This document shows, one piece after another, positions 1,920 through 49,250 of a stretch of DNA of 64,000 bases. Under the pieces are notes generated by a model that was not told the DNA's origin, made no database searches, and saw only the letters and a program-made list of their open reading frames with translations. The translations under genes and the position numbers were made by a program. Numbering within the stretch: the stretch's first letter is position 1; the number at the start of each line of letters is the position of its first letter. This DNA is from Patescibacteria group bacterium (GTDB lineage: Bacteria > Patescibacteriota > Patescibacteriia > UBA9934): the NCBI GenBank assembly GCA_038064675.1, contig JBBTSM010000003.1:191212-255211 (forward strand). The letters run 5' to 3'.

Positions 1920-1944
1920 AGGACTTTGAGAACTTTCTAATTTT

Positions 1945-2048
1945 AGGCTAGTTTCGATGAACGACGAGCAAAGTTTTCGAGATGTACTTCTCGGTACATC
2001 GAGAAAATTTGCGATGGCGTGAGTCGAAAATAGACAAAATTAGGAAGT
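1945..2048 (+). repeat. ~100-bp intergenic repeat element, copy 1 (TTTTAGGCTAGTTTCGATGAAC…GATGTACttctcgGTACATC…GTGAGTCGAAAATAGACAAAAT)
   Basis: Near-identical to copies at 21058-21160 and 30026-30130; contains 7-bp hairpin GATGTAC/GTACATC; lies upstream of minus-strand gene start at 1919. Confidence 0.7.
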
Positions 2049-3428
2049 TCTCTGCTTTGCCCACTGACGAACCACCCATGTCGCGCGTACGTCGTCTTCA
2101 TTGTAGCGCAACACGTCGTTGAGCATCTCGCGATTTCCGGTACGCAACCAGTCCTCGTACCACAATACCGAGTTCAATCCAGACGCGTCGTCGTGCCGCC
2201 AACGAAAGCCGAGGAACTGCGCGATGTCTTTCAATGAATAAAACGACAACGGGAAAATCACCGCCTCGCGCAAACGCTCGAGAACATCCACCGATCGCTC
2301 TGCAAGGTCGTCAACAAATCCTTCTGGCGCGCCGTGACGCTCCGCCATCAGCCGAAATACGTCTTGTTCGTACCATCCATAGTGATACACCGGAATACCC
2401 GGGCGCGACTCCATGAATGCCACGAATGCATCCCACGCCGCCTTTTCCTCGTCCTGCTTTTCTGCAAGGAACGTGTGGAATTCATCGCCTTGGCCGTGCA
2501 CATCGAGCACACCAAAAAGGTAGTGCAAATCACGAAGCGGATCAGCCTCGATATCAACGACGAGTGCGTCGTCAGTTTTTGGGAAGTCGACTTTTCCGAG
2601 GACGACCGGTTTGCCGTCGAGCAGTGCCTTCGCGCCGAGAATGAGGAATTGCAGACGTTCTTGTGTAACACCAGGAACACTGCGAGCAAGGAGATCCGCG
2701 TTCCGCGTTGAGAGCTGTGTAACCGTGGTGATTCCTGCATCGTTCAACGCCGTCACCTCGCTGCGCCAAATGCGGTTCATGCGCGACAAATGATCATTCG
2801 CAATTGTTTCCTTTTTGCATTCATCGAACCACGGGGATTGTTTGCAATCTGATGTGAGGAAATGTGGTTCGCGAATACCTTCGAGAATGCGTTCAATGCC
2901 ATCGAGGGTGAGGCGGAATTTCGTTTGATACTCCTCGAGGACGTAGGCCTCGACGGTTCCATCGGGCCGCATGATGTATCCCTGTTTTGGCTTCATGCCC
3001 TGAATGCCGCGAAGCACCTCGGCGTAAAACGCGCCCTGCACACAGTATTCATCTTTCAAATGACGAGAACGCTTAATGTCGCAGGCAACGTAGTAGTACT
3101 CTCCAAAAGTCGATTTCCCAGAAACGCGTTCGAAAAGATCGGGTTTTGCAACCCAGTGTCCGTGAATAAGCACGCCACCATAAATCGACTGCGCACCCTG
3201 CTTCATGAGCTCAAGCGTTTTCGCGCACGCCTCCTCTTCCGATTCCGCTGAAACTTCAATGGATTTTCGGGTCACCAAAATTGCGCGCTCTTGCTCCTGG
3301 ATCAAGGCGTCGTCTTGCACTCGCGCTCGCATTGCGTCTTCTCGGTGCGGCAATGTTGCGTCGTACCAAATCCACGACGGACACTTGAGATAACGATAAA
3401 AGCTTTGCTTGGTGATGCGTTTGGACAT
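2040..3428 (-). CDS. RecB-like PD-(D/E)xK nuclease with C-terminal RNase H-like (3'-5' exonuclease, DIE motif) domain (COG2251/TM0106-type)
   Basis: 462 aa; N-terminal Cys-containing Cas4/RecB-like region (YRYLKCPSWIWYD…), C-terminal LVVDIEADPL…YHYGWYE exonuclease-like motifs; immediately downstream of an XRE regulator. Confidence 0.55.
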   Translation of the reverse strand: MSKRITKQSFYRYLKCPSWIWYDATLPHREDAMRARVQDDALIQEQERAILVTRKSIEVSAESEEEACAKTLELMKQGAQSIYGGVLIHGHWVAKPDLFERVSGKSTFGEYYYVACDIKRSRHLKDEYCVQGAFYAEVLRGIQGMKPKQGYIMRPDGTVEAYVLEEYQTKFRLTLDGIERILEGIREPHFLTSDCKQSPWFDECKKETIANDHLSRMNRIWRSEVTALNDAGITTVTQLSTRNADLLARSVPGVTQERLQFLILGAKALLDGKPVVLGKVDFPKTDDALVVDIEADPLRDLHYLFGVLDVHGQGDEFHTFLAEKQDEEKAAWDAFVAFMESRPGIPVYHYGWYEQDVFRLMAERHGAPEGFVDDLAERSVDVLERLREAVIFPLSFYSLKDIAQFLGFRWRHDDASGLNSVLWYEDWLRTGNREMLNDVLRYNEDDVRATWVVRQWAKQRTS

Positions 3429-20749: not shown

Positions 20750-20821
20750 ATGAATATAGGCGCTTTTCCCATTTGGCCTCTTTTCAGCTTGTCGCATCGG
20801 AAACTCGCTCAACGTACACAT

Positions 20822-20875
20822 GAAGTACGTCTCGCGAGATTTCCTCGCTCCGCACCGAAAATAGTCTCAAATGTG
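20822..20875 (+). repeat. Partial/divergent copy of the ~100-bp intergenic repeat (…GAAGTACGTCTCG…GCACCGAAAATAGTCTCAAATG)
   Basis: Matches the hairpin and tail modules of copies at 43040-43123 and 1945-2048. Confidence 0.45.
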
Positions 20876-20904
20876 CAAAGTGCGTCCTTTTTACCTCAGC
20901 GTTC

Positions 20905-20940: not shown

Positions 20941-21057
20941 CGATGATGTATTGAACGCCTGTGAGATGTGATGAATAAGTGCCCGTAGAAGACGGCAGAA
21001 TAGTACTAAACTTTGCTAAAATTCGCAAATGAATCCTACAAAAATTCTGATATTTGT

Positions 21058-21160
21058 GGCGAGTTTCGATGAAGAGCGAGAAAATGTCCCGAAAACGTAC
21101 TTCTCGGTACGTTGAGGGAATTTTCGATGGTCTGAGTCGAAAATCGACCAAATAGCAGGA
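21058..21160 (+). repeat. ~100-bp intergenic repeat element, copy 2
   Basis: GCGAGTTTCGATGAAGAGCGAGAAAATGTCCCGAAAACGTACTTCTCGGTACGTTGAGGGAATTTTCGATGGTCTGAGTCGAAAATCGACCAAAT; upstream of rpsB (minus) start region. Confidence 0.65.
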
Positions 21161-21163
21161 TTT

Positions 21164-22174
21164 TTAGCGAATAAACATGGCGTCTCCAAAGGAAAAGAAT
21201 CGGTATCTGTGATCGATAGCTTCTTTATAGGCAGCGAGGATGTGCTCGCGATCGGCGAAGGCGGAAACGAGCATGAGCAAGGTGGATTTTGGAAGGTGGA
21301 AGTTGGTTATAAGGCCATCGACGATCTGAAATTGGAATCCCGGCGTAATAAACATATTCACTTCCCCGCTGTACGCCGCAAGCTCACCAATCGTTGCAAC
21401 AACGCCCTCAAGAACTCGCACCGTCGTTGTTCCCACCGCAATAACCCGACAACCTTCTGACTTCGCCGATCGAATTCTCTGTGCGGTCAATTCATCGATT
21501 TCCACAAACTCGGCATGCATCACATGATCCTCGATGTGATCAGTTTGCACCGGGCGGAACGTGCCGATCCCCACATGAAGCGTCACTTCCTCGATCTGTA
21601 CGCCTTTCGCCCGTGCTCGATCGATGAGTTCGGGGGTGAAGTGGAGTCCTGCGGTTGGTGCGGCGACTGAACCGGTCGATCTTGCATAGACGGTTTGATA
21701 GCGATCGGGATCCGCGAGCTCGGTCGTGACGTATGGTGGCGTTGGTACTGATCCTGCAGATTCACAAAACGCAAACATCTCCCCCGCTGTCATCGATGAT
21801 TTCAGGGTCACGATTCCGTCTGTTGTTTTATTAGAGACGACCCAGCGGGTCGTCTCTACGGTGATCGCAGATCCGATACCTAATTTTCTGCTCCCGCGAA
21901 TCAATACATCGATTTCACCATCGCGAACCTTGAGGACGAAAACTTCGAAGCCGTCGATCTGAAGACGAGCCTTAAAAACCTTTGAAACATTAAAGACGAG
22001 AACGTCGCCGGCATTCAACTCGTCGAGAATTTCAGCAAATCGATCGCGATGACGGATCTCCCCCGAATTCCGGTCGAGCACCAACAGCCTCGATGCATCC
22101 CGTGGCTCAATAGGAACCTGAGCGATCAGCTCCTCCGGCAAATCGTACGAAAAATCAGCAACAGGCGTTGGCAT
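21164..22174 (-). CDS. queA: S-adenosylmethionine:tRNA ribosyltransferase-isomerase
   Basis: MPTPVADFSYDLPEELIAQVPIEPRDASRLLVL…, GTTTVRVLE motifs. Confidence 0.9.
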   Translation of the reverse strand: MPTPVADFSYDLPEELIAQVPIEPRDASRLLVLDRNSGEIRHRDRFAEILDELNAGDVLVFNVSKVFKARLQIDGFEVFVLKVRDGEIDVLIRGSRKLGIGSAITVETTRWVVSNKTTDGIVTLKSSMTAGEMFAFCESAGSVPTPPYVTTELADPDRYQTVYARSTGSVAAPTAGLHFTPELIDRARAKGVQIEEVTLHVGIGTFRPVQTDHIEDHVMHAEFVEIDELTAQRIRSAKSEGCRVIAVGTTTVRVLEGVVATIGELAAYSGEVNMFITPGFQFQIVDGLITNFHLPKSTLLMLVSAFADREHILAAYKEAIDHRYRFFSFGDAMFIR

Positions 22175-22247
22175 AATGCCGGATATTTTAGGCTAATGCT
22201 TGCGGAAAAGCAATTTTTATGATATAGAATTCTTACCCGAGGTTCAC

Positions 22248-22601
22248 ATGAATACGTTGATGGTTCACGCCATGATCCAGGTGGGTGGTTTCCTGACTCT
22301 CGCTCTGGTGGCGGCATTTTTCATTCAGGCGTTCGAAGTCCTGAAGAGGGTCGTAACGCCCAATCGATTCCTCGCGCTCGCAATCATCACCTCCGTGTTC
22401 CAGGTCCTGACCATCTGGATCCTGAACAATGGAGGATACGACGTTCTGCGCGCCAATCCCAAGGGGGAGGTCCTCATCACGGATATGAAAGTATCAACGG
22501 TGCTGTCCTTGATCTGTGCGTTTTTGGCCGCACTTCACGTGGCGGGGTACGACATGATTCTTTCGTTTCCGGAAATCATTCGGCGGATCAAAAAGCTCTA
22601 G
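22248..22601 (+). CDS. small GC-rich membrane protein (cassette 1)
   Basis: 117 aa, 3 predicted TM helices; own promoter (TTGCGG…TAGAAT at 22196-22242) and GC-hairpin terminator + GTCGTTTTATACACAATTCAC (22625-22669). Confidence 0.45.
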   Translation: MNTLMVHAMIQVGGFLTLALVAAFFIQAFEVLKRVVTPNRFLALAIITSVFQVLTIWILNNGGYDVLRANPKGEVLITDMKVSTVLSLICAFLAALHVAGYDMILSFPEIIRRIKKL

Positions 22602-22742
22602 TGAGACAACTCTCAAAAACGCGCTCGCGCCCAGGACGACCCCTGGGCGCGAAGTCGTTTTATACACAATTCACATCCATTTATAGGCTAATATTTGCAG
22701 AAAAACAATTTTTTCGATAGAATGAGTTTACCTGAGAGATTC

Positions 22743-23087
22743 ATGGATCACATTCCGGTTATCGATACCTTCTTCAGTGTCGTCGCTTATCTGGCCATCT
22801 GCACCCTTCCGTTCGGTGCCGGGTGGATTCTGTGGAGGGAAAGGGCGAAGATGCACGCGCAGGGATGCGTGTACGGAATCACCCAAAACGAGAAGGCGAG
22901 CATCGTCATCGCCTTCCTGGGGGCAGTCCTCGGCTGCATGGGATTCATCATCAGCCAGAACTCTGCCGAGTTGGCGAAGTACTGCGGATTCTCATTCATC
23001 GGCAGCACCGTCATGCTCATCATCGGAGGATTCGTGAGCGCGCTCTACTATCGGGGGAGAGACGAGGAGCTCCGGTCCCGGTACTGA
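22743..23087 (+). CDS. small GC-rich membrane protein (cassette 2)
   Basis: 114 aa, 3 TM helices; promoter TTGCAG-17-TAGAAT (22699-22736); terminator + identical 21-mer GTCGTTTTATACACAATTCAC (23110-23153). Confidence 0.45.
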   Translation: MDHIPVIDTFFSVVAYLAICTLPFGAGWILWRERAKMHAQGCVYGITQNEKASIVIAFLGAVLGCMGFIISQNSAELAKYCGFSFIGSTVMLIIGGFVSALYYRGRDEELRSRY

Positions 23088-23154
23088 AACCACGCCGACG
23101 CCGCCCTACGCAGGGTGGCGTCGCGGTCGTTTTATACACAATTCACCGCCAATC

Positions 23155-23183
23155 TTTGACAAAAAACCCTTATTCCGATACTA
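23155..23183 (+). promoter_or_regulatory. sigma70-type promoter of rpmE (TTGACA-17-TACTAT) with ~170-nt leader
   Basis: Consensus -35 TTGACA at 23155-23160, -10 TACTAT 23178-23183. Confidence 0.45.
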
Positions 23184-23358
23184 TTTCCGCACTTATTCGG
23201 CTGTATACAAAGCAGCCTAACAAGAACCTTCCCATTTGGCCGATTTTCGACTCACGCCATCGGAAACTTTCTCACCGTACCGTTAAGTACGCCTCGAAAA
23301 TTTTCCTCGTCGTTCATCGAAACTCGTCACAAATGAAAAGGTTCTTACCAAAACCCTT

Positions 23359-29987: not shown

Positions 29988-30025
29988 AAGAATATCTTCT
30001 GACTTGATGAGGAATTTCTTATTTT

Positions 30026-30130
30026 AGACTAGTTTCGATGAACAGCGAGCAAAGTTTCCGAGGTGTACCTCTCGGTACATCGAGGAAATTTGCGATGATG
30101 TGAGTCGAAAATAGACAAAATAAGGAATTC
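30026..30130 (+). repeat. ~100-bp intergenic repeat element, copy 3
   Basis: TTTTAGACTAGTTTCGATGAACAGCGAGCAAAGTTTCCGAGGTGTACCTCTCGGTACATCGAGGAAATTTGCGATGATGTGAGTCGAAAATAGACAAAATAAGGAATTC; in divergent region between 29987 gene and gyrB. Confidence 0.7.
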
Positions 30131-30153
30131 CTCTTCTGTCAACAGGATTATAA

Positions 30154-32217
<2,064 letters not shown>

Positions 32218-32363
32218 CGCGAAAAGTACTCTCACTAAAAAAGCACCGAAATTCGGTGCTTTTTGATTTTAAATACACAGAAACCCTTGCAAAAGGGTAA
32301 TTTCTGTGTTATGATTTCTTGTCCGGATGCACCGGCGAATCACAAAGATAAGGAGAAACGCAC

Positions 32364-32918
32364 ATGTTGCGCACGACAGGAAACACCGAGCCTCTCGAAA
32401 CCCCCAACGACGAGAAGCCGTTCGTCACGGTCGCTCTCGTGGTGACCATCGGCCACAACGCCCCGCCGTGCGTCCTCCGGGCGCTCGGCAAGGCGAGCCG
32501 CACGATCCTCTCGGCCGCGACGGTGGTGCCCCCGGACCAGGAGTGGGACTGGACGCCGGAGACGATGGACGAGATCGTCCTCGTTGCCAACGCCATCGTG
32601 AATGACCTCCTCACCACCCACTTCATCCTGCCCGAGCTCTCGCTGCCCCAGGACGACGAGGAGGGCGGCCCGAACATCTGGAACACGGACGTGCGCCGCG
32701 AGTTCGCGGTCGAGGTGAACCCGGAAGACCACGACGAGTTCTTCGTCCGGACGGCGATCCGGCTCGAGACCGCGGGCGGAAACCGAACGAGGCACCCCGA
32801 GCGCGCGACGTACGCGGCGGTCGTGCCCCCGGATCCGGACAGCGATCTCCCCGCGTGCATCACGTTCCACGGCAAGATCACCCGCGCGACGCACATCCCG
32901 GCCATCCGGCTGGAGTAA
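32364..32918 (+). CDS. GC-rich acidic hypothetical protein (orphan cassette)
   Basis: 184 aa, GC3 very high vs neighbours; own promoter TTGCAA-17-TATGAT (32290-32320) and RBS AAGGAGA; terminator GGCGGCCCCACCAGGCCGCCGC at 32937-32958. Confidence 0.45.
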   Translation: MLRTTGNTEPLETPNDEKPFVTVALVVTIGHNAPPCVLRALGKASRTILSAATVVPPDQEWDWTPETMDEIVLVANAIVNDLLTTHFILPELSLPQDDEEGGPNIWNTDVRREFAVEVNPEDHDEFFVRTAIRLETAGGNRTRHPERATYAAVVPPDPDSDLPACITFHGKITRATHIPAIRLE

Positions 32919-33054
32919 TCGCGCACCAACGACGCCAGCGGCGGCCCCACCAGGCCGCCGCGTTCGTTTTCCACCGACCCCCTTGCTCCCCCATCCAATT
33001 CGGTGTATATTCTCCCCATCAGCCGAAAGGCTTTTTTTGATACAATATTTCCGT

Positions 33055-33258
33055 ATGCAACGCATTCTCAACAATCCAGCGGTAAAGTACTTCCGTGAAG
33101 CACGGATGGAACTGGAAAAGGTTTCTTGGCCAACACGAAAGGAAACCATCATGTACTCCACCATTGTTCTCGTCCTTAGTCTCGCTACCGCCGCATTCAT
33201 TGGCGTGCTCGACCTTGGCTTGAGCAAGGGCCTCGAGTTCCTTATTTCCAAAGTCTAA
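33055..33258 (+). CDS. secE: Preprotein translocase subunit SecE
   Basis: 67 aa; …FREARMELEKVSWPTRKETIMYSTIVLVLSLATAAFIGVLD… single TM; immediately upstream of nusG. Confidence 0.75.
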   Translation: MQRILNNPAVKYFREARMELEKVSWPTRKETIMYSTIVLVLSLATAAFIGVLDLGLSKGLEFLISKV

Positions 33259-33260
33259 GT

Positions 33261-33806
33261 ATGGCAAAACAAACCGCCAATTACGGCCGACGTTGGTACG
33301 TTATTCACACGTACTCTGGATACGAAGAAAGCGTGGTAGAAGCGCTCACTCAGCGTATGAGCACCATGGACATGGAGGAGAAGATTTTCAACATTCTCGT
33401 TCCAAAGGAAAAGAAGATTAAGATCAAGAACGGTGCACGTAAGGTTATCGAAGAAAAGATTTTCCCAGGCTATGTGCTCGTGGAAATGATCGTAACTGAC
33501 GACTCTTGGTACGTGGTGCGCAACACACCAAACGTTACGGGCTTCATCGGAACGGGAAATACTCCAACTCCGATCCCACAAGAACAGGTGGACGATCTCA
33601 TGAAGCGCGTGGGTGTCGCAGAACCAGAATTCAAGATCGACGTGGAAAAAGGCTCACTCGTTGCCATCACCGACGGTCCGTTCAAGGGCCAGCAAGGAAA
33701 GGTGGACGACGTGGACATGTCCCGCGGAAAGGTCAAAGTCATGGTCTCCATGTTCGGCCGCGAAACCCCGCTCGAACTCGACTTCCTCCAGGTCAAAAAA
33801 GTGTAA
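33261..33806 (+). CDS. nusG: Transcription termination/antitermination factor NusG
   Basis: RWYVIHTYSGYEESV… NGN domain and C-terminal KOW (…GSLVAITDGPFKGQQGKVDDVD…). Confidence 0.9.
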   Translation: MAKQTANYGRRWYVIHTYSGYEESVVEALTQRMSTMDMEEKIFNILVPKEKKIKIKNGARKVIEEKIFPGYVLVEMIVTDDSWYVVRNTPNVTGFIGTGNTPTPIPQEQVDDLMKRVGVAEPEFKIDVEKGSLVAITDGPFKGQQGKVDDVDMSRGKVKVMVSMFGRETPLELDFLQVKKV

Positions 33807-33811
33807 ACCAA

Positions 33812-33845
33812 AAATCACTCCGAGCAATCGGAGTGATTTTTGTTT
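33812..33845 (+). terminator. nusG terminator, prototype of a repeated hairpin family AAAAATCACTCCGAGCAATCGGAGTGATTTTT
   Basis: Perfect 12-bp stem + U tract; near-identical copies at 35279-35312 and 36776-36812. Confidence 0.6.
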
Positions 33846-33897
33846 CATTTAACTGTACACATATAAATGGAAATACTGATAAAACGACCAAAGATCG

Positions 33898-34335
33898 TTA
33901 ATTAAACAAGGCTGAGCGAAGCCGAACCGCACGCTCCAAGATTCGCTTGCCAACGTTGCCCCAGTCAACATATTTATCCCAGTCATTTAGGTCTATACGT
34001 TTGATTTTTGTAACACTACCGCTCGGATCACTCTCAAAGTCGGCAACAGGCTCAACGGTACAGAGCGAACGTAGCTGGAACACAAAGCTCCCGTCTGAAC
34101 GAATAACTTTTTGGTATCCAATCGGACGATGCCCGAGAACTCGCATGTTCGATTCTTCTTTTACCTCACGTATCAACGCGTCATCAACGGTTTCGCCGGG
34201 CTCAATCTTTCCACCCAATAAACTCCAACGCCCCTGCTTTTCGTGCCATCCAACAACAATTTTATCCCCGTAAAAAACAAACACCATAGTGCTGATTGAT
34301 TTGTTCGACCGGTAGATCCGCGAAAGAATCAGCAT
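33898..34335 (-). CDS. NUDIX hydrolase
   Basis: Nudix box GGKIEPGETVDDALIREVKEESN. Confidence 0.7.
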   Translation of the reverse strand: MLILSRIYRSNKSISTMVFVFYGDKIVVGWHEKQGRWSLLGGKIEPGETVDDALIREVKEESNMRVLGHRPIGYQKVIRSDGSFVFQLRSLCTVEPVADFESDPSGSVTKIKRIDLNDWDKYVDWGNVGKRILERAVRLRSALFN

Positions 34336-34496
34336 CCCGATAGATAACCTCGAAATCAGTATTTCCGTCAGTGAATCGTTCTCTGAGCTCCATATGAAAG
34401 GAATTATAGACCTCGTGATGGTGGAATGGCTACGATCTGCATTTTTGCGGTCAAGATGTCGTCAGCAACGGTTTCCACGATGTTTTTTGTTTTGAG

Positions 34497-35267
34497 ATGA
34501 TACAATCGGCAAATATGATAAAGAGCGAAAAACTGGAAGCACAAGAATCGATTCTCGATACGCTCAAAAAAGAAGGAATGCTCTCTTTTGACGTCAAGCT
34601 GACACCCGAAGAAAAAGTCTGCATTCATGATGTCCGCATTGAACACAATGTCTCTGATCTCAATCACTACGGGAATATCGATGAAGTTCTTGTAAAGAAT
34701 CTACGAACATACCTAAACCAGCTAGGAGCTAACGCGGAAGAAGTCACAAAAACTATAGCCGAGCTTATTACAAGACTCGCAGAGGTCATGCGAAAAACTT
34801 TCAATAAAAGTTCTGTCTGGCTTGCCGTCCGCACATCGTTGCCGAATACCGATTGGGACGTTCCACGTTGGCACAGAGATGGCGGATTTTTGAATGATGA
34901 CAACGGAAATCTTGTCACCGAAGAATTCAAACTCGTCTTTACGCTCAAGGGAGCACCGACGCGTTTTGCAGAAGTCATCGACATACAAAAATTCGAAGAA
35001 TATGAACGGGAAGAAATACTCAATAACGAACACGATGGGTTAGAAGGTTACGAGGAACGAGCCCTGGCCATACGACGAAAACTTGAAGAAACCGTTCGAG
35101 AAATTCCTGTCGGGAAAAAAGGATTCGCCACAATCTATCGCGTAGACGGAACACACGGAAAAATTCATTCCGAGCCCGAAATCACCGAGCCCCGAATTTT
35201 CATATCAATCATCACCGGGTCTCAATCCCAAATCGAAGAGCTTCAGCGTCGTTTTTCATCCTATTAA
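34497..35267 (+). CDS. hypothetical protein, possible cupin/Fe(II)-2OG oxygenase-like (HxD…H: RWHRDGG … GTHGKIHSEPE); AT-rich
   Basis: 256 aa; putative facial-triad spacing only; composition differs from core genes. Confidence 0.35.
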   Translation: MIQSANMIKSEKLEAQESILDTLKKEGMLSFDVKLTPEEKVCIHDVRIEHNVSDLNHYGNIDEVLVKNLRTYLNQLGANAEEVTKTIAELITRLAEVMRKTFNKSSVWLAVRTSLPNTDWDVPRWHRDGGFLNDDNGNLVTEEFKLVFTLKGAPTRFAEVIDIQKFEEYEREEILNNEHDGLEGYEERALAIRRKLEETVREIPVGKKGFATIYRVDGTHGKIHSEPEITEPRIFISIITGSQSQIEELQRRFSSY

Positions 35268-35278
35268 TAATGACATTA

Positions 35279-35312
35279 CAAAAATCACCCCGAACAATCG
35301 GGGTGATTTTTT
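35279..35312 (+). terminator. copy of nusG-type terminator hairpin (AAAAATCACCCCGAACAATCGGGGTGATTTTTT)
   Basis: Sequence family match to 33812-33845. Confidence 0.55.
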
Positions 35313-35416
35313 ATTGACTTTTTCTGATTTTTATGCCATATTTCCCTGTTGATTCTTTCACAAGGAGCCCCTGTCGATATCTCAAGTCGATAGAGGTCCC
35401 TTGTGTAGGAGTCTCC

Positions 35417-35671
35417 ATGTCATCAGTGCGCACCGCGGCTCTCCTCGTCGCAATCAGCGCCCTCACATTCGCCCTCTCCGGCGCTCTGACCCTGTGCGTC
35501 AAGAGCACCATCACGATCTGGTGGCCGATCGGATGGACCATCTTCTATGTGGTGCTGACCGTGGCAGCTCGGCGCCGGAAGGACCTTTGGCAGAACTTCT
35601 CGATGAAGGCGGGCTGTGCAGCCCTGATCTCCATGAGCCTGGGAATGCTTGCCGCCCTGCTGTGGCCCTAG
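35417..35671 (+). CDS. small GC-rich 2-TM membrane protein (module 1, partner of M41-like peptidase)
   Basis: 85 aa; RBS AGGAG 5 nt upstream; followed by GC hairpin CGGCGTCGGCTCTTCCCGGGGCCGACGCCG. Confidence 0.45.
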   Translation: MSSVRTAALLVAISALTFALSGALTLCVKSTITIWWPIGWTIFYVVLTVAARRRKDLWQNFSMKAGCAALISMSLGMLAALLWP

Positions 35672-35803
35672 ACTAGACGAAGCGGACGTTCAACTCCGCA
35701 ACGACGCTCGGCGTCGGCTCTTCCCGGGGCCGACGCCGTTCACGTTTTCATTGCTTTTTTGGTTCTTTTTGGCTAATGTCCTTCTGCTCCAAACGGAGGA
35801 AGC

Positions 35804-36295
35804 GTGATCGACGACATCAATGAAATCTCACGAACCATCGTGCATGAAGCTGGCCACGCCACTGTAGGCGTCTTGCTATTCCCCGACGAAATCGTCTGGG
35901 TCAGCGCCATCCCCAATCCATCGTCACTGGGACGGGCACTTACTACGGTTACACTAGAAATGGTCGTTCGTTACCCGACTGAACGGTTCATCGACTATCT
36001 CGCGTTCCTTTTTGCGGGACGAGCGGCCGAAGAAAATCGGTTCAGCAACTACAAGGACTGGATGTCCCGGCATGATGAACAGAGTGCTCACGAAGCGCTC
36101 CACCAATATCGGGCCATGCATCCAAAACTCCTCCACAATGACCAGGATCTCACCACTCAGGCACGCCAGCGTGCTCACGAGATTCTCGTCAGAGAACAAT
36201 CTCTCTTCCACACGCTCACGTCGGGCCTCGTCCGCTACGACCAGTTCGGTCAGGAATGGCTCCTCTACAACTATTACCTCTTCGCCACGACGTAG
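35804..36295 (+). CDS. standalone FtsH-type M41 zinc-metallopeptidase domain protein (no AAA ATPase, no TM)
   Basis: HEAGHA zinc motif (IVHEAGHATVGVLL), IP…LG…, and GRAAEE motif (LFAGRAAEENRF) aligned as in FtsH protease domain; GTG start with GGAGGA RBS. Confidence 0.6.
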   Translation: MIDDINEISRTIVHEAGHATVGVLLFPDEIVWVSAIPNPSSLGRALTTVTLEMVVRYPTERFIDYLAFLFAGRAAEENRFSNYKDWMSRHDEQSAHEALHQYRAMHPKLLHNDQDLTTQARQRAHEILVREQSLFHTLTSGLVRYDQFGQEWLLYNYYLFATT

Positions 36296-36332
36296 CGCCG
36301 ACCCTCCCCAGGGTCGGCTCTTCCGTTTTATT
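36283..36332 (+). repeat. 50-bp duplicated 3' flank ACGACGTAGCGCCGACCCTCCCCAGGGTCGGCTCTTCCGTTTTATTG (copy 1)
   Basis: Near-identical to 37379-37430; includes terminator hairpin GCCGACCCTCCCCAGGGTCGGC. Confidence 0.6.
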
Positions 36333-36378
36333 GTCTTTAACGATCTTTCCGGTTATTGTCATTTCTATATCGCCTCTT

Positions 36379-36774
36379 ATGACGCTCTCCTCAAAAATCG
36401 AAACAGGTATTGTGCTCGTCTCCGGAGCGCTGCTCCTCCTTCTCCTTGCCGGCATAGCCAATAATATCCTCCTTGCACGGGAAGGGCTTTTCGACGCCGG
36501 GTACCATCATCAAACAATAGCGCACAACGGTCCAAGAAATGGAGATATCGATTTATGGAGTGAAGAGAAACCATACCTCTGCTCATATTTCAAAATGCAC
36601 AGCGACGGCGCGATCGGCTTTCACTGCACAACCGGCGAGTACCTAAAGCAGGAAATCCTGAACCTTCCAAACATCCTCGTCTTTTTCCTCTTCGGCTTAC
36701 CACTCCTTGTGATCTTCACCGGCACTAGTCTTGTGCTCATTTCCGAAATCAAGGCGGAAAAGACCCTGGTGTAA
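36379..36774 (+). CDS. small 2-TM membrane protein (module 2)
   Basis: 131 aa; N- and C-terminal TM helices; promoter TTGTCT-17-TATTGT at 36330-36358. Confidence 0.45.
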   Translation: MTLSSKIETGIVLVSGALLLLLLAGIANNILLAREGLFDAGYHHQTIAHNGPRNGDIDLWSEEKPYLCSYFKMHSDGAIGFHCTTGEYLKQEILNLPNILVFFLFGLPLLVIFTGTSLVLISEIKAEKTLV

Positions 36775-36775
36775 A

Positions 36776-36812
36776 CAAAAAATCACTCCGAGCGCAACCG
36801 GAGTGATTTTTT
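36776..36812 (+). terminator. copy of nusG-type terminator hairpin (AAAAAATCACTCCGAGCGCAACCGGAGTGATTTTTTG)
   Basis: Sequence family match to 33812-33845. Confidence 0.55.
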
Positions 36813-36866
36813 GTTGCATTTTTTATAATCAATCGATAACCTTTCTTTGCTTTGGGAGTGAATACA

Positions 36867-37367
36867 ATGCCGAACGCAACTTGGCGTACGTTAACCCAAG
36901 GGATTCCCCGAAATCAGACAACCGCTCACGCAGCCGTTCATGAGGCCGGCCACGCCACTCTGGCAACGATTCTCTTTCCGGCGACGATTGAATACGCGAC
37001 GATCATCGAAGCAGGAGGAGTAATGGGCAGCGTCAAGTACTCCTGTACCAACGCATCCATCTGCTCGCGACAAGAAAGCATGAACGTCCTCGCCGTTGCG
37101 ATGGCGGGACGGGCGGCGGAAGAAATCGAGTTCGGGTACTCTATCGACCTCGGAAGCTTCTTTGATTACGGCGTTGTCCGAAACCATCTGTGTAGTCGCA
37201 ACGCAAATGGTCGCAGACTTCACGAATCAAAAGACTTCCTCATCGATGTAGCGCTCAAGCGCGCGCACGAAATTTTGGTCAAAGAACGAGAGCTCTTTCA
37301 CCAGATCATCGCCGGCTTGATTCGGGAAAATCGCCTCGATCGCGCAGCGCTTCTTGCGCTTCAGTGA
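36867..37367 (+). CDS. standalone FtsH-type M41 zinc-metallopeptidase domain protein, paralog 2
   Basis: AVHEAGHATLATIL … MAGRAAEEIEFG; GGGAG RBS 7 nt upstream of ATG. Confidence 0.6.
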   Translation: MPNATWRTLTQGIPRNQTTAHAAVHEAGHATLATILFPATIEYATIIEAGGVMGSVKYSCTNASICSRQESMNVLAVAMAGRAAEEIEFGYSIDLGSFFDYGVVRNHLCSRNANGRRLHESKDFLIDVALKRAHEILVKERELFHQIIAGLIRENRLDRAALLALQ

Positions 37368-37378
37368 GCAATACAAAA

Positions 37379-37430
37379 CGACGACGTAGCGCCGATCCTC
37401 CCCAGGGTCGGCTCTTCCGTTTTATTGACT
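37379..37430 (+). repeat. 50-bp duplicated 3' flank (copy 2)
   Basis: ACGACGACGTAGCGCCGATCCTCCCCAGGGTCGGCTCTTCCGTTTTATTG. Confidence 0.6.
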
Positions 37431-37554
37431 ATTTCCGCCAATCCTGGCACAATCTTGTCACTAAATAACGATGTAGTTGCTCGAAGATTTACCGAGAGGA
37501 AATCGAGGGAATCTACTATAAATTCATCGAATTCAATATTCGAGGTCGTACACT

Positions 37555-37980
37555 ATGGCAAAGAAGATCAAGGCAGTTATCAAAGTGCAATCAATCGGAG
37601 GTCGGGCAACACCAGCACCTCCACTCGGACCAGCGCTCGGTGCGCAGGGTGTGAACATTCAGCAGTTCGTGCAGGAATTTAACGCAGCAACACAGGACAG
37701 AATGGGAGAGACAGTTCCAGCAATCATCACCATTTATGAAGACCGCACATTCAGCTTCATCCTGAAGACTGCTCCAGCGAGCGATCTTGTGAAAAAAATC
37801 ACGGGAATCGAAAAGGGATCCGGAAAGCCACTCACTGAAAAGGTGGGAAAGATCACCCAGGCTCAGTTGCGCGAAGTTGCGATGAAGAAAATGCCAGACT
37901 TGAATACGACCAATGTAGAGGCTGCGATGAAAATCATCGCTGGCACCTGTCGTCAAATGGGAGTCGATGTCATTGCTTAA
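37555..37980 (+). CDS. rplK: 50S ribosomal protein L11
   Basis: [43 protein letters not shown]…. Confidence 0.95.
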
Positions 37981-42382: not shown

Positions 42383-42835
42383 CTACACCTTCGGCGCGTC
42401 GCGGTCCCCGATCGGGAAGTTGAACGTGGACGCGTGAAGCGAACCGTCCGAGAGCGTGACGATCTGGGGAACGATCATGTGGATGTGCGGATGCTGCATG
42501 ATCTGTCCGCTGTAGAGTCGATCACCCTCGCGGATGCAGATCCCGTACCCCTTGAGCCCGAAGCGTTCGATCAGTTCGTCACGCAAGTGCACGAACGCAG
42601 CGAAACCCGCCGCGGTGATCCTCTCCGTGCTGTGGTCAATAGGCGTGAAAAGGATCTGATACAGGGGCTGAATGAACAGCGCGTCCGTACGCGGGCGCTC
42701 ATTGGGGACCGCGATCCACCCTCCGTACGATGCGAGCGCATTGTCGCGCCAGCTCTGCTGACAGAAGCGGCAGCCGTCCCGCCGCACCTGTTCTTCATAG
42801 ACCCGTTCGGGCTTAACAACCTCAGTCATGTACAA
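42383..42835 (-). CDS. HIT-family protein (canonical H-x-H-x-H), GC-rich orphan gene
   Basis: CRFC zinc motif, QHPHIHMIVPQ histidine triad; high GC; terminator GGTGGGGCC…GGCTCCACC + TTTTCGATTTCTGG downstream (minus). Confidence 0.7.
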   Translation of the reverse strand: MYMTEVVKPERVYEEQVRRDGCRFCQQSWRDNALASYGGWIAVPNERPRTDALFIQPLYQILFTPIDHSTERITAAGFAAFVHLRDELIERFGLKGYGICIREGDRLYSGQIMQHPHIHMIVPQIVTLSDGSLHASTFNFPIGDRDAPKV

Positions 42836-43039
42836 CTCCGTGTGCCATGAAACACTACATTGCTACCCAATGTTTGGTCAAAAAGAAACATCACGCGGCC
42901 AAGCATGGCAACCGCGTGATATCTTTTTGCGACGACGTTTTCTCGTCATCACGCTTCGCACTGTACACGGAAAAAATGGAGGGTCAACGAAATTATGTGG
43001 ATAACGAAAAGAATTTATCATTTCGCCCATTTTCGGCTT

Positions 43040-43123
43040 GCTTCCTCAACGTGATCGACGACGTACCGAGAAGTACGTCTTGACGCTCACGTCTTCGTTG
43101 CGCACCGAAACTGGTCTGAAATG
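43040..43123 (+). repeat. divergent copy of the ~100-bp intergenic repeat (…CGTACCGAGAAGTACGTCTTGACGCTCACGTCTTCGTTGCGCACCGAAACTGGTCTGAAATG)
   Basis: Hairpin module inverted relative to copy 1, tail module GCACCGAAA…TCTGAAATG conserved. Confidence 0.5.
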
Positions 43124-48614: not shown

Positions 48615-49250
48615 GTGCCAATGGACGACGAGATTTCCCCGACCCGATCACCTAGGAGAACTCCCGTGCCCACCCCTCGTTTGGCTTTCGATTCCCCTTT
48701 CAACGACCCGACCCAACGCAACAGCGGCTCGCACTCCCTGTTCACCGTCATGGATGGTGGCCGCAGCCGTGCCGAAGGCCCACCGGCGATCGTCGTCGCA
48801 GAGACCCCGGCGCCCGAACCGGCGACAAGCGTCAAACTCGATCCGCCGGTGGCCACAGTCACCAACTGGTCTCCGCGCTGGTGGCGGATGCTCGTCATCC
48901 TCACCCTGCAGTACGGTCGGTGGTCGATCATCGGCTGGCCGCTCTACACAATCTTCTGCGCCTGGCGTTCCTACGACGTCAAGTGCGCGCTCGACGCCCT
49001 CACGCTCCGCTACGGGCGCGGCGACGTGGGCTTCGACATCGGGCTGAAGATCTCCGAGATCCTCAAGCACGGTACGAGCATCGAGGACCTGTGTGTCATC
49101 GAGAACGCGACGCGTAGCAGCCGGTTCCGCCCGTTTGGCCTCGAAGCGACATTCGCCGACGAGACCATGAACGGGGCATCCCTGCTCCACCACTTGAACT
49201 GGGCGTGCGGGCTCGTCCGCTCGCCCATCTCGCCCACCATCAACCCGTGA
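48615..49250 (+). CDS. GC-rich hypothetical protein (orphan cassette) with central hydrophobic segment
   Basis: 211 aa; Pro-rich N-term; terminator GATGCCTCGCCGC…GGCGAGGCATCG + GTGTTTTTATACACAG (49262-49312). Confidence 0.4.
   Translation: MPMDDEISPTRSPRRTPVPTPRLAFDSPFNDPTQRNSGSHSLFTVMDGGRSRAEGPPAIVVAETPAPEPATSVKLDPPVATVTNWSPRWWRMLVILTLQYGRWSIIGWPLYTIFCAWRSYDVKCALDALTLRYGRGDVGFDIGLKISEILKHGTSIEDLCVIENATRSSRFRPFGLEATFADETMNGASLLHHLNWACGLVRSPISPTINP

Follow-up and report, generated by a model that had tools for sequence, protein, structure and literature searches.

Two adjacent transcription units with closely similar ends and dissimilar coding parts lie between the divergent genes queA and rpmE in a 64-kb stretch of DNA from an uncultured groundwater population of Candidatus Uhrbacteria (Candidate Phyla Radiation, CPR/Patescibacteria), and they raise the question of whether such units are the cargo of a mobile cassette system or resident genes with alike regulatory ends. 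An earlier note on this stretch, hereafter called the window (all coordinates are window positions), had compared the layout to integron or shufflon cargo, with the reservation that each unit carries its own promoter. According to our analysis, the conserved boundaries appear to be Rho-independent terminators and copies of a housekeeping promoter rather than recombination sites. Relatives differ in what they carry at the locus, and nothing points to a dedicated mobile-element mechanism. With modest confidence, we favour an islet of fast-diverging paralogues that are kept by selection and gene conversion.

Unit 1 (22185-22674) and unit 2 (22680-23146) form a direct tandem pair on the plus strand, each made of a head, an open reading frame (ORF) and a tail. 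The sequence, the alignments and the motif counts bear out the earlier note in that the two units have a common head and a common tail with an identical 21-mer; the start of unit 2 had to be moved from 22686 to 22680, and the ORFs start at 22248 and 22743. The description of the products as different three-helix proteins of about 115 aa was likewise accurate. ORF1 (22248..22601, plus strand) encodes 117 aa and ORF2 (22743..23087, plus strand) 114 aa, and both are orphans with three predicted transmembrane helices. No BLASTP alignment was observed between the two proteins at E≤100, and the coding parts gave no blastn match at word size 7. The GC content at third codon positions (GC3) is 0.72 in ORF1, versus 0.33 at second positions (GC2), and 0.79 in ORF2; this three-base periodicity of composition confirms that the ORFs are read in their annotated frames.

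When we searched 5.8e9 proteins, both ORFs retrieved self matches only; for ORF2, the NCBI entry bears the name 'hypothetical protein AAB473_03325, Patescibacteria group bacterium'. With ORF1, HMMER was also run in full over 1.84e9 representatives, where it returned nothing besides itself and one spurious match, P0003, which was rejected as a remote homologue because it is a 15-fold tandem-repeat artefact. Pfam, PHROGs, tblastx and viral scans of the window cargo gave no match, and no origin of the cargo from other frames or genes was found by tblastx and blastn against the window and 97 loci. ORF1 is present on seven Hainich groundwater contigs, 99.7-100% identical to the window, and no strain-level structural variant was observed among these seven. 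A 121-aa alternative gene in the Hainich contigs was discarded, as it reflects merely a different start call.

We then asked what the heads are. Related loci, and the genomes that carry them, are designated here by L-numbers (L008, L010, L014, L106 and so on). Head 1, the promoter and leader of ORF1 (22185..22247, plus strand), was delimited from its sequence and from alignments to head 2, the rpmE promoter and the empty L014 site. Its plus strand contains a -35 element TTGCGG (22200-22205), a 17-nt spacer, an extended -10 element TGATATAGA (22220-22228; TAGAAT at 22225-22230) and a Shine-Dalgarno sequence GAGG (22239-22242). Head 2, the promoter and leader of ORF2 (22680..22742, plus strand), was placed by promoter scan and alignments; it contains TTGCAG at 22695-22700 (read by the scanning tool as TTTGCA, 22694-22699), TAGAAT at 22718-22723 and GAGAG at 22734-22738. 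In both units the Shine-Dalgarno sequence lies 4-5 nt upstream of the start codon. The two heads (22185-22247 and 22680-22742) align without a gap up to the ATG, with 76% identity over 58 nt (blastn E 5e-6). The head string is TAGGCTAATNNTTGCRGAAAANCAA, and the head motif TTTWTAGGCTAAT has four matches at ≤2 mismatches in the window, compared to 1.06 expected.

Both heads also align with the rpmE promoter and with the sole promoter of the empty spacer in L014 (GTTTTGGCTAACCTTTGACAAAAA). The rpmE promoter region (23141..23184, plus strand) comprises the 25-mer ATTCACCGCCAATCTTTGACAAAAA (23141-23165), a -35 element TTGACA (23156-23161) and a -10 element TACTAT (23179-23184), and it marks the conserved right edge of the islet; by alignment it appears to be paralogous to the heads. 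A promoter scan flagged unit 2 (9/12 matches) and the rpmE promoter (10/12). From these matches to the consensus, we infer that the heads are sigma-70-type promoters followed by Shine-Dalgarno sequences, their promoter activity being a prediction. The -35 element lies inside a palindrome, TTGC-N6-GCAA, and the minus strand of head 1 reads TTGCTT (22213-22208), 17 nt and TAAAAT (22190-22185), 10 nt upstream of the queA ATG. Because the palindromic -35 element provides this second arrangement, head 1 would most simply be a bidirectional promoter that serves the queA side too. The 28-nt head core shows 0-3 mismatches in most relatives; in L008 the palindrome is changed at both half-sites, from TTGC..GCAA to TTGT..ACAA. 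A structured RNA or riboswitch in the heads was rejected, with fold z scores of -0.6 (head 1) and -0.3 (head 2) and no Rfam match.

The tails are composed of the U-tract of a terminator and about 13 further nt. The 21-mer GTCGTTTTATACACAATTCAC is present in exactly two copies in the window, both on the plus strand, at 22654-22674 and 23126-23146. At ≤3 mismatches, 0.01 chance matches were expected, and none of 100 shuffles reached two. Copy 1 consists of the U-tract GTCGTTTT and ATACACAATTCAC, and the last 6 nt of copy 2 (ATTCAC, 23141-23146) open the promoter-upstream element of rpmE. As the earlier note had reported, a GC hairpin precedes each 21-mer: a hairpin that we call type T1 in unit 1 (22625..22652, read on both strands, 11-13-bp stem, A-tract upstream and U-tract downstream) and a type T2 hairpin in unit 2 (23096..23123, plus strand, 12-bp stem). 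Their folding energies are -34.4 and -27.5 kcal/mol, respectively (z -7.8 and -4.4 versus shuffles), and a terminator scan called both as intrinsic terminators, the one of unit 1 on both strands. The two stems differ in sequence; both are perfect GC stems of 11-13 bp with loops of 4-6 nt, followed by GTCGTTTT, and the U-tract is short (UCGUUUUAU). With a stable GC stem-loop and a U-tract at the 3' end of the gene, the tails are predicted Rho-independent terminators.

The same two stem types recur in relatives, T1 after unit 1 of the window and after L008_A, L008_B, L106_A, L107_A and L019_A, and T2 after unit 2 of the window and after L010_A, L110_A, L106_b and L109_A. Among the T1 stems, we observed a compensatory double change (CCAGG/CCTGG to CCCGG/CCGGG). 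Nine related genomes have the 25-mer of the rpmE promoter region in identical form, so that the 21-mer does overlap a conserved flanking element, with its last 6 nt only; one of the conditions that the earlier note had set for its refutation thus applies in part. When the window is compared with its closest relatives, identity at four-fold degenerate sites of the flanking genes is only 0.48-0.62. Since the ends are conserved while these sites have changed to such an extent, the heads and tails have the appearance of regulatory DNA under purifying selection.

To place the two units in an evolutionary frame, relatives were found via QueA, an L31 alignment and L31 homologues, and the queA-rpmE spacer was read in 25 loci from about 15 lineages. 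On the left, the islet is flanked by queA (S-adenosylmethionine:tRNA ribosyltransferase-isomerase; 21164..22174, minus strand; Pfam Queuosine_synth on the identical gene) and on the right by rpmE (ribosomal protein L31; 23359..23670, plus strand), which is followed by prfA and prmC. By QueA, the closest genomes are metagenome-assembled genomes of Candidatus Uhrbacteria, with 78-86% identity. The spacer measures 104-1184 nt across the 25 loci. It is empty in L014/L104/L105 and L111-113; it holds only a ribbon-helix-helix (RHH) antitoxin gene in L018, L098 and L099-103, one small membrane-protein unit in L010, L107 and L110 and at least one in L019, and two units in the window, L008 and L106, the second one of L106 being truncated. 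L009 and L109 combine one unit with RHH and RelE-like genes, and L114/115 carry a gene for a 205-aa soluble protein. At the occupied sites, the head is kept beside queA and the 25-mer beside rpmE. Since the content varies by lineage while the edges stay, the spacer can be regarded as a hypervariable islet with conserved regulatory edges. The expectation of variation at the locus was therefore well founded, with zero, one or two units or other genes according to the lineage; further copies of the 21-mer or head were confined to this locus and its orthologues. None was found elsewhere in the window, in two scans of genome and metagenome collections, which do not contain the source genome, or in two viral scans.

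The second unit of L106 (L106_b) derives from an L110_A-like gene by a deletion that starts in the promoter spacer and reaches into codon 57. L106, L107 and L109 have an identical L31 protein, yet their flanks are only 78-90% identical. Separately, the RHH (CopG-type) antitoxin genes of the spacer are associated with palindromic operators (L009 7430-7780, L109 1303-1810, L018 3686-3790, L098 and L099-L103), and RelE/ParE-like remnants stand beside the RHH genes in L009 and L109. This occupancy in relatives suggests that the queA-rpmE site generally receives small genes of selfish or defence type. The RHH genes in the spacer lack T1 and T2 tails and the high GC3 described below.

We next compared the small membrane proteins of the locus with one another. 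Most pairs among the 12 ORFs showed no BLAST similarity, and the few that are demonstrably homologous across genomes have about 28-38% identity. Homology is evident for L019_A and L106_A, which match at 38% over 71 aa (z 10.9) and at 28% along their full length, in genomes with 88% identical L31 proteins. L008_B carries their motif P-x-[ST]-[IV]-W-[SF]-G-[KQ]...GW, and L110_A matches L106_b, which is the remnant of an L110_A-like gene. Because of these homologies, we consider that the cargo can be inherited, with divergence to the edge of detection at modest genomic distance. Small fast-evolving proteins are known to escape homology detection, and CPR genomes are rich in uncharacterised membrane proteins. 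In a test against a window-shuffled null, 10 of 45 cargo pairs scored above it at p<0.05, compared to about 2 expected. A gapless N-terminal test gave as the best two of the 45 pairs W_ORF1/L008_A (p 0.0005) and W_ORF2/L008_B (p 0.006), W_ORF1 and W_ORF2 being the window ORFs. These are the positional pairs of the window and L008, the two closest two-unit genomes.

Within the window, helix 3 of both proteins contains a common STV..I..F..AL...G.D (9/20 identical, z 3.4, p 0.01). The nucleotide register test for ORF1 and ORF2 gave p 0.54, and the two are alike in length, topology and codon bias. From this comparison, a common ancestry of ORF1 and ORF2 is plausible. An AlphaFold single-sequence model of ORF2 predicts three helices with low confidence (predicted local distance difference test score, pLDDT, 62.6).

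The tails themselves suggest how their likeness might be maintained. In the window the 21-mers are identical and the hairpins different; in L008 a 39-nt hairpin region is identical between the two tails, which differ 3' of the hairpin. At variable positions, both window copies of the 21-mer have the state ATA, versus ACC (L008) and CCC (L010) in the orthologous tails. This mosaic fits better with short-patch gene conversion between old repeats than with a recent duplication of a whole unit. The promoter of the empty site resembles a hybrid of head and rpmE promoter, as a deletion between two copies would leave it, and it could equally be ancestral. Diverged coding parts with alike regulatory ends have a proven analogue in the same window: two M41-like paralogues between nusG and rplK with 36% protein identity are each followed by a terminator-plus-promoter 50-mer, identical at 48 of 50 positions.

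Like the queA-rpmE spacer, this nusG-rplK region (33806-37555) is an islet of accessory genes ahead of a ribosomal protein gene, and it too makes repeated use of regulatory modules. The 50-mer lies at 36287 and 37381. A second terminator, the T1 of this region, is used three times, at 33810, 35283 and 36779; its copies at 33801-33825 and 36769-36793 have the last codon and stop, GTGTAA, in common. Its cargo comprises a minus-strand gene (33898-34335), a 256-aa gene, membrane proteins of 84 aa and 131 aa, and the two stand-alone M41-peptidase-like proteins with the motif HEAGH.

Taken together, our reading of the queA-rpmE islet is as follows. Each unit would be an autonomous monocistronic transcription unit, with a promoter head, an ORF of about 115 codons for a small three-helix inner-membrane protein, and a terminator tail. 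The head would be a copy of the bidirectional sigma-70-type promoter (TTGC-N6-GCAA) of the locus itself, together with its Shine-Dalgarno sequence. The ends would remain alike through purifying selection on regulatory DNA and occasional short patches of gene conversion, and the lineage-restricted coding parts would change so fast that paralogues and orthologues alike drop below detection. Homologous or unequal recombination, acting between the repeats of the promoter and terminator modules, would alter how many units are present and what they contain, leading to gain, loss, truncation or conversion, with no involvement of a site-specific recombinase. Recombination as the driver of these changes is, like any function of the proteins, deduced from the comparisons above; a membrane-embedded role in conflict or in cell-cell interaction would be a guess.

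Several observations weigh against this reading. Homology between ORF1 and ORF2, or between the window ORFs and the ORF of any relative, is not established, BLASTP giving none. The nucleotide-level register signal among the cargo pairs resides mostly in codon position 2, and this location may reflect helix placement. A profile of family 1 (L019_A, L106_A and L008_B) scores the other cargo no higher than decoys. All sampled relatives are diverged, with flanks at most 90% identical, and even the closest pair is too distant for divergence or replacement to be followed. For the promoter of unit 1, the -35 element matches 3 of 6 positions, the scan made no call and the extended -10 element was read by eye.

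A further objection concerns codon use. All 12 small membrane ORFs of the locus have a GC3 of 0.68-0.86, compared to 0.52-0.64 for host genes, and the polytopic membrane proteins of the host fall inside the host range. The codon use of the cargo is foreign to the host: ATC reaches 87%, TTC 91% and CTC+CTG 83%, versus 47%, 40% and 46%, respectively, in host membrane proteins. Translational selection as the cause of the high GC3 was rejected, with a codon adaptation index (CAI) of 0.59-0.60 versus 0.68-0.81 in the reference set. The RHH genes and the 205-aa gene of the same spacer have a GC3 of 0.40-0.61, values that weaken a locus-wide GC-biased conversion as the cause. A native fast-diverging gene would be expected to drift towards the composition of the host or towards AT, so that an unexplained force or repeated import is needed. 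The codon bias argues for a common external source of, or a common force on, this class of genes, and it is the main evidence for captured cargo. Elsewhere in the window, three ORFs without a Pfam match (35417-35671; 42383-42829, minus strand; 48621-49250) have a GC3 of 0.79-0.83 in a genome whose genes are near 0.55, and downstream of the last one come a terminator and GTTTTTATACACA, a string similar to the 21-mer.

The most serious alternative is a cassette exchange without recombinase, in which unrelated ORFs come from an external or pan-genomic pool and the head and tail act as homology arms for replacement or stacking. We consider it possible, with a clear reserve. Besides the host-alien codon use in 12/12 cargo ORFs, which translational selection leaves unexplained, it would account for the absence of any relative of ORF1 and ORF2 in the searches above and for homology breakpoints that lie no more than about 20 nt from the start or stop codon, although such breakpoints are equally expected if regulatory DNA alone is constrained. 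A family-1 gene occupies unit 1 in L106 and unit 2 in L008, and at the junction between the units of the window a full head follows a full tail with its ATTCAC, a string otherwise found next to the rpmE promoter; both observations agree with exchange. The means may also be at hand, ComEC, DprA and type IV pili, which belong to the competence machinery, being widespread in CPR (PMC6744442). Against exchange, we found no donor, no second locus and no identical cargo between genomes. The known cargo homologues are deeply diverged and occupy the same locus, as vertical descent predicts, and the spacer RHH genes have neither T1/T2 tails nor the GC3 signature. Overall, the cargo may be either diverged paralogues or captured DNA.

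An extended form of this idea is more doubtful still. Here the head and tail (about 30-60 nt) would be the homology adaptors of a recombinase-free cassette system that swaps, stacks and deletes small membrane-protein genes among Uhrbacteria populations via natural transformation and homologous recombination; the high GC3 would be the footprint of GC-biased gene conversion, and the locus a dedicated site of surface or membrane diversification in an episymbiotic CPR lineage.

It is unlikely, on present evidence, that the units are genes for membrane-perturbing toxins or abortive-infection effectors or for their immunity partners, a proposal that is compatible with an islet of fast-diverging paralogues. 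Residues 46-114 of ORF2 (helices 2-3 and the C-terminal tail) gave weak matches to three PADLOC PycTM models, to the CBASS 4TM-effector and to the reverse transcriptase (RT)-associated SLATT model (E 3.8e-4 to 1.4e-2), and none of 10 composition-matched ORF2 decoys had a PADLOC match at E≤1. We regard this likeness as a lead only, as Pfam sees nothing and no partner gene is present. The RHH/RelE toxin-antitoxin genes in the same spacer of relatives and the resemblance of tandem self-expressed units of about 500 bp to type I toxin repeats of Escherichia coli point in the same direction. On the other side, Pfam and PHROGs remained empty, the other 11 cargo proteins of the locus had no PADLOC match, no sensor, cyclase or antitoxin partner was found, and products of 114-117 aa with three helices are larger than type I toxins. 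The idea of an antisense RNA, as in type I systems, was rejected: the promoter-like site on the minus strand of head 2 is not kept in the second heads of L008 and L106, so that it provides no evidence for such an RNA, and Rfam gave no match.

Even less probable is de novo birth, with duplicated promoter-terminator scaffolds upstream of a ribosomal gene acting as a nursery for new small hydrophobic ORFs. The orphan ORFs are indeed short and hydrophobic and lie between a ready-made promoter and terminator, mini-ORFs of 33 aa and 41 aa exist in L106 and L107, and the origins of prokaryotic orphans have been discussed, with a native origin argued for many (PMC11293555). However, the strong three-base periodicity and the GC3 of 0.7-0.86 are unlike young ORFs from AT-biased non-coding DNA, and both GC and CAI are lower in published de novo candidates (PMC11293555). 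In L106, the mini-ORF is what a deletion left of a longer gene, and no source is visible from which each unit could have drawn its roughly 350 nt of new DNA. Finally, a site-specific recombination system of integron or shufflon type deserves next to no credence, as it matches the general layout only (tandem units, conserved boundaries, dissimilar ORFs): no tyrosine or serine recombinase or transposase was found among the 37 window ORFs scanned, no integrase or invertase among these ORFs or beside the 25 related loci, the hairpins are perfect GC stems of differing sequence with a U-tract and no GTTRRRY core, the repeats are direct, and the units carry their own promoters and have no other copies in the scans described above.

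A miniature inverted-repeat transposable element (MITE)-like repeat of about 135 nt with terminal inverted repeats of about 17 nt is also present in the window. The 64 kb contain six copies, of which five are good and one is degenerate, at 1927-2056 (-), 20766-20890 (+), 21040-21160 (-), 23214-23352 (+), 30008-30137 (-) and ~43030-43110 (-). They lie mostly in the leaders of housekeeping genes (rpmE, rpsB, gyrB), the repeat is also found in the rpmE leader of L114, and it has no Rfam match. Since it is missing from the rpmE leader of the closest relatives, the element has been mobile recently. The head motif ATTTTAGGCTAAT (22185-22197) and the inner end of one MITE copy, ATTTTAGGCTAGT (1940-1952), are equal at 12 of 13 bases, which may be chance (about 0.08 expected by our own estimate) or a relic. 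The region 32300-33250, just upstream of a secE-like ORF and nusG, has 62% GC and long open frames on both strands; a 184-aa plus-strand ORF in it has no Pfam match.

The apparent mobile-cassette array would be, in our reading, two self-expressed orphan genes with common regulatory ends at a variable site. This is a modest result, and it carries a warning: where hyper-diverged small ORFs are enclosed by conserved promoters and terminators, these ends can pass for the boundaries of cassettes, which is a trap for scans of sequence only. The queA-rpmE spacer is a compact and well-delimited CPR hotspot, in which gain, loss, truncation and patchy conversion may be traced over about 15 lineages. The unexplained codon signature of its small membrane ORFs may mean that they have one origin in common or evolve under a special regime. 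Should this regime be a diversification of membrane proteins by recombination in an episymbiont, it would have implications for the variation of the CPR cell surface.

How the islet compares with known systems depends on which of its features is considered. What the earlier note saw as cassette-like stands as far as the layout goes, each unit having its own promoter-like head and the content varying among relatives; the analogy with integrons or shufflons does not. Integron cassettes similarly form arrays of units with conserved boundaries and dissimilar single ORFs. However, an integron needs an intI tyrosine recombinase and attI/Pc, and neither Phage_integrase nor another recombinase was found among the 37 window ORFs scanned, the flanks being queA and rpmE in all related loci. 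An attC site is an imperfect palindrome with extrahelical bases and a GTTRRRY core; the stems are perfect here, and no GTTRRRY occurs at either boundary. Integron cassettes are promoterless and their boundaries recur around other cargo, whereas these heads are promoter-like and, in the window and the collections searched, restricted to one locus. A shufflon requires inverted sites and an Rci-type recombinase, in contrast to the direct head and tail repeats and the absence of a recombinase among the window ORFs scanned.

Type I toxin-antitoxin repeats offer another parallel in architecture. In E. coli, the long direct repeat (LDR) loci ldr/rdl and the ibs/sib loci are tandem type I toxin-antitoxin repeats of ~500 bp with their own promoter and terminator, and they encode small hydrophobic proteins. 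The islet is likewise intergenic and made of tandem self-expressed units of about 500 bp with small hydrophobic products. In those systems the toxin has <60 aa, the ORFs are conserved between repeats and each unit has a cis-antisense RNA, unlike the dissimilar ORFs of 114-117 aa and three helices described here. The SLATT/PycTM effectors of CBASS, Pycsar and retron-like systems have a weak profile similarity to helices 2-3 and the tail of ORF2. They are two-helix proteins, in contrast to ORF2, and in the islet no sensor or signalling enzyme is nearby, ORF2 alone is concerned and the similarity is below Pfam detection.

Tandem duplicates with concerted non-coding ends resemble the islet in their direct units of equal size and in ends homogenised in patches, and they differ from it in that ORF1 and ORF2 are not significantly similar in their coding parts, the duplication being inferred. 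A further parallel is offered by chromosomal hotspots between conserved core genes, also known as flexible islets. As in such hotspots, the place between the core genes queA and rpmE is fixed and its content differs in every sampled lineage, its short genes lack annotation and have a restricted taxonomic range, and toxin-antitoxin genes occur at the same site. The queA-rpmE islet departs from them in being tiny (0.1-1.2 kb) and apparently built from copies of the flanks' own bidirectional promoter and two terminator types. Hotspot orphans elsewhere usually match the GC of their host (PMC11293555), in contrast to the uniform host-atypical GC3 of this cargo. Overall, the closest description of the locus would be a small hotspot of lineage-restricted orphans, arranged in tandem transcription units whose regulatory ends evolve in concert.

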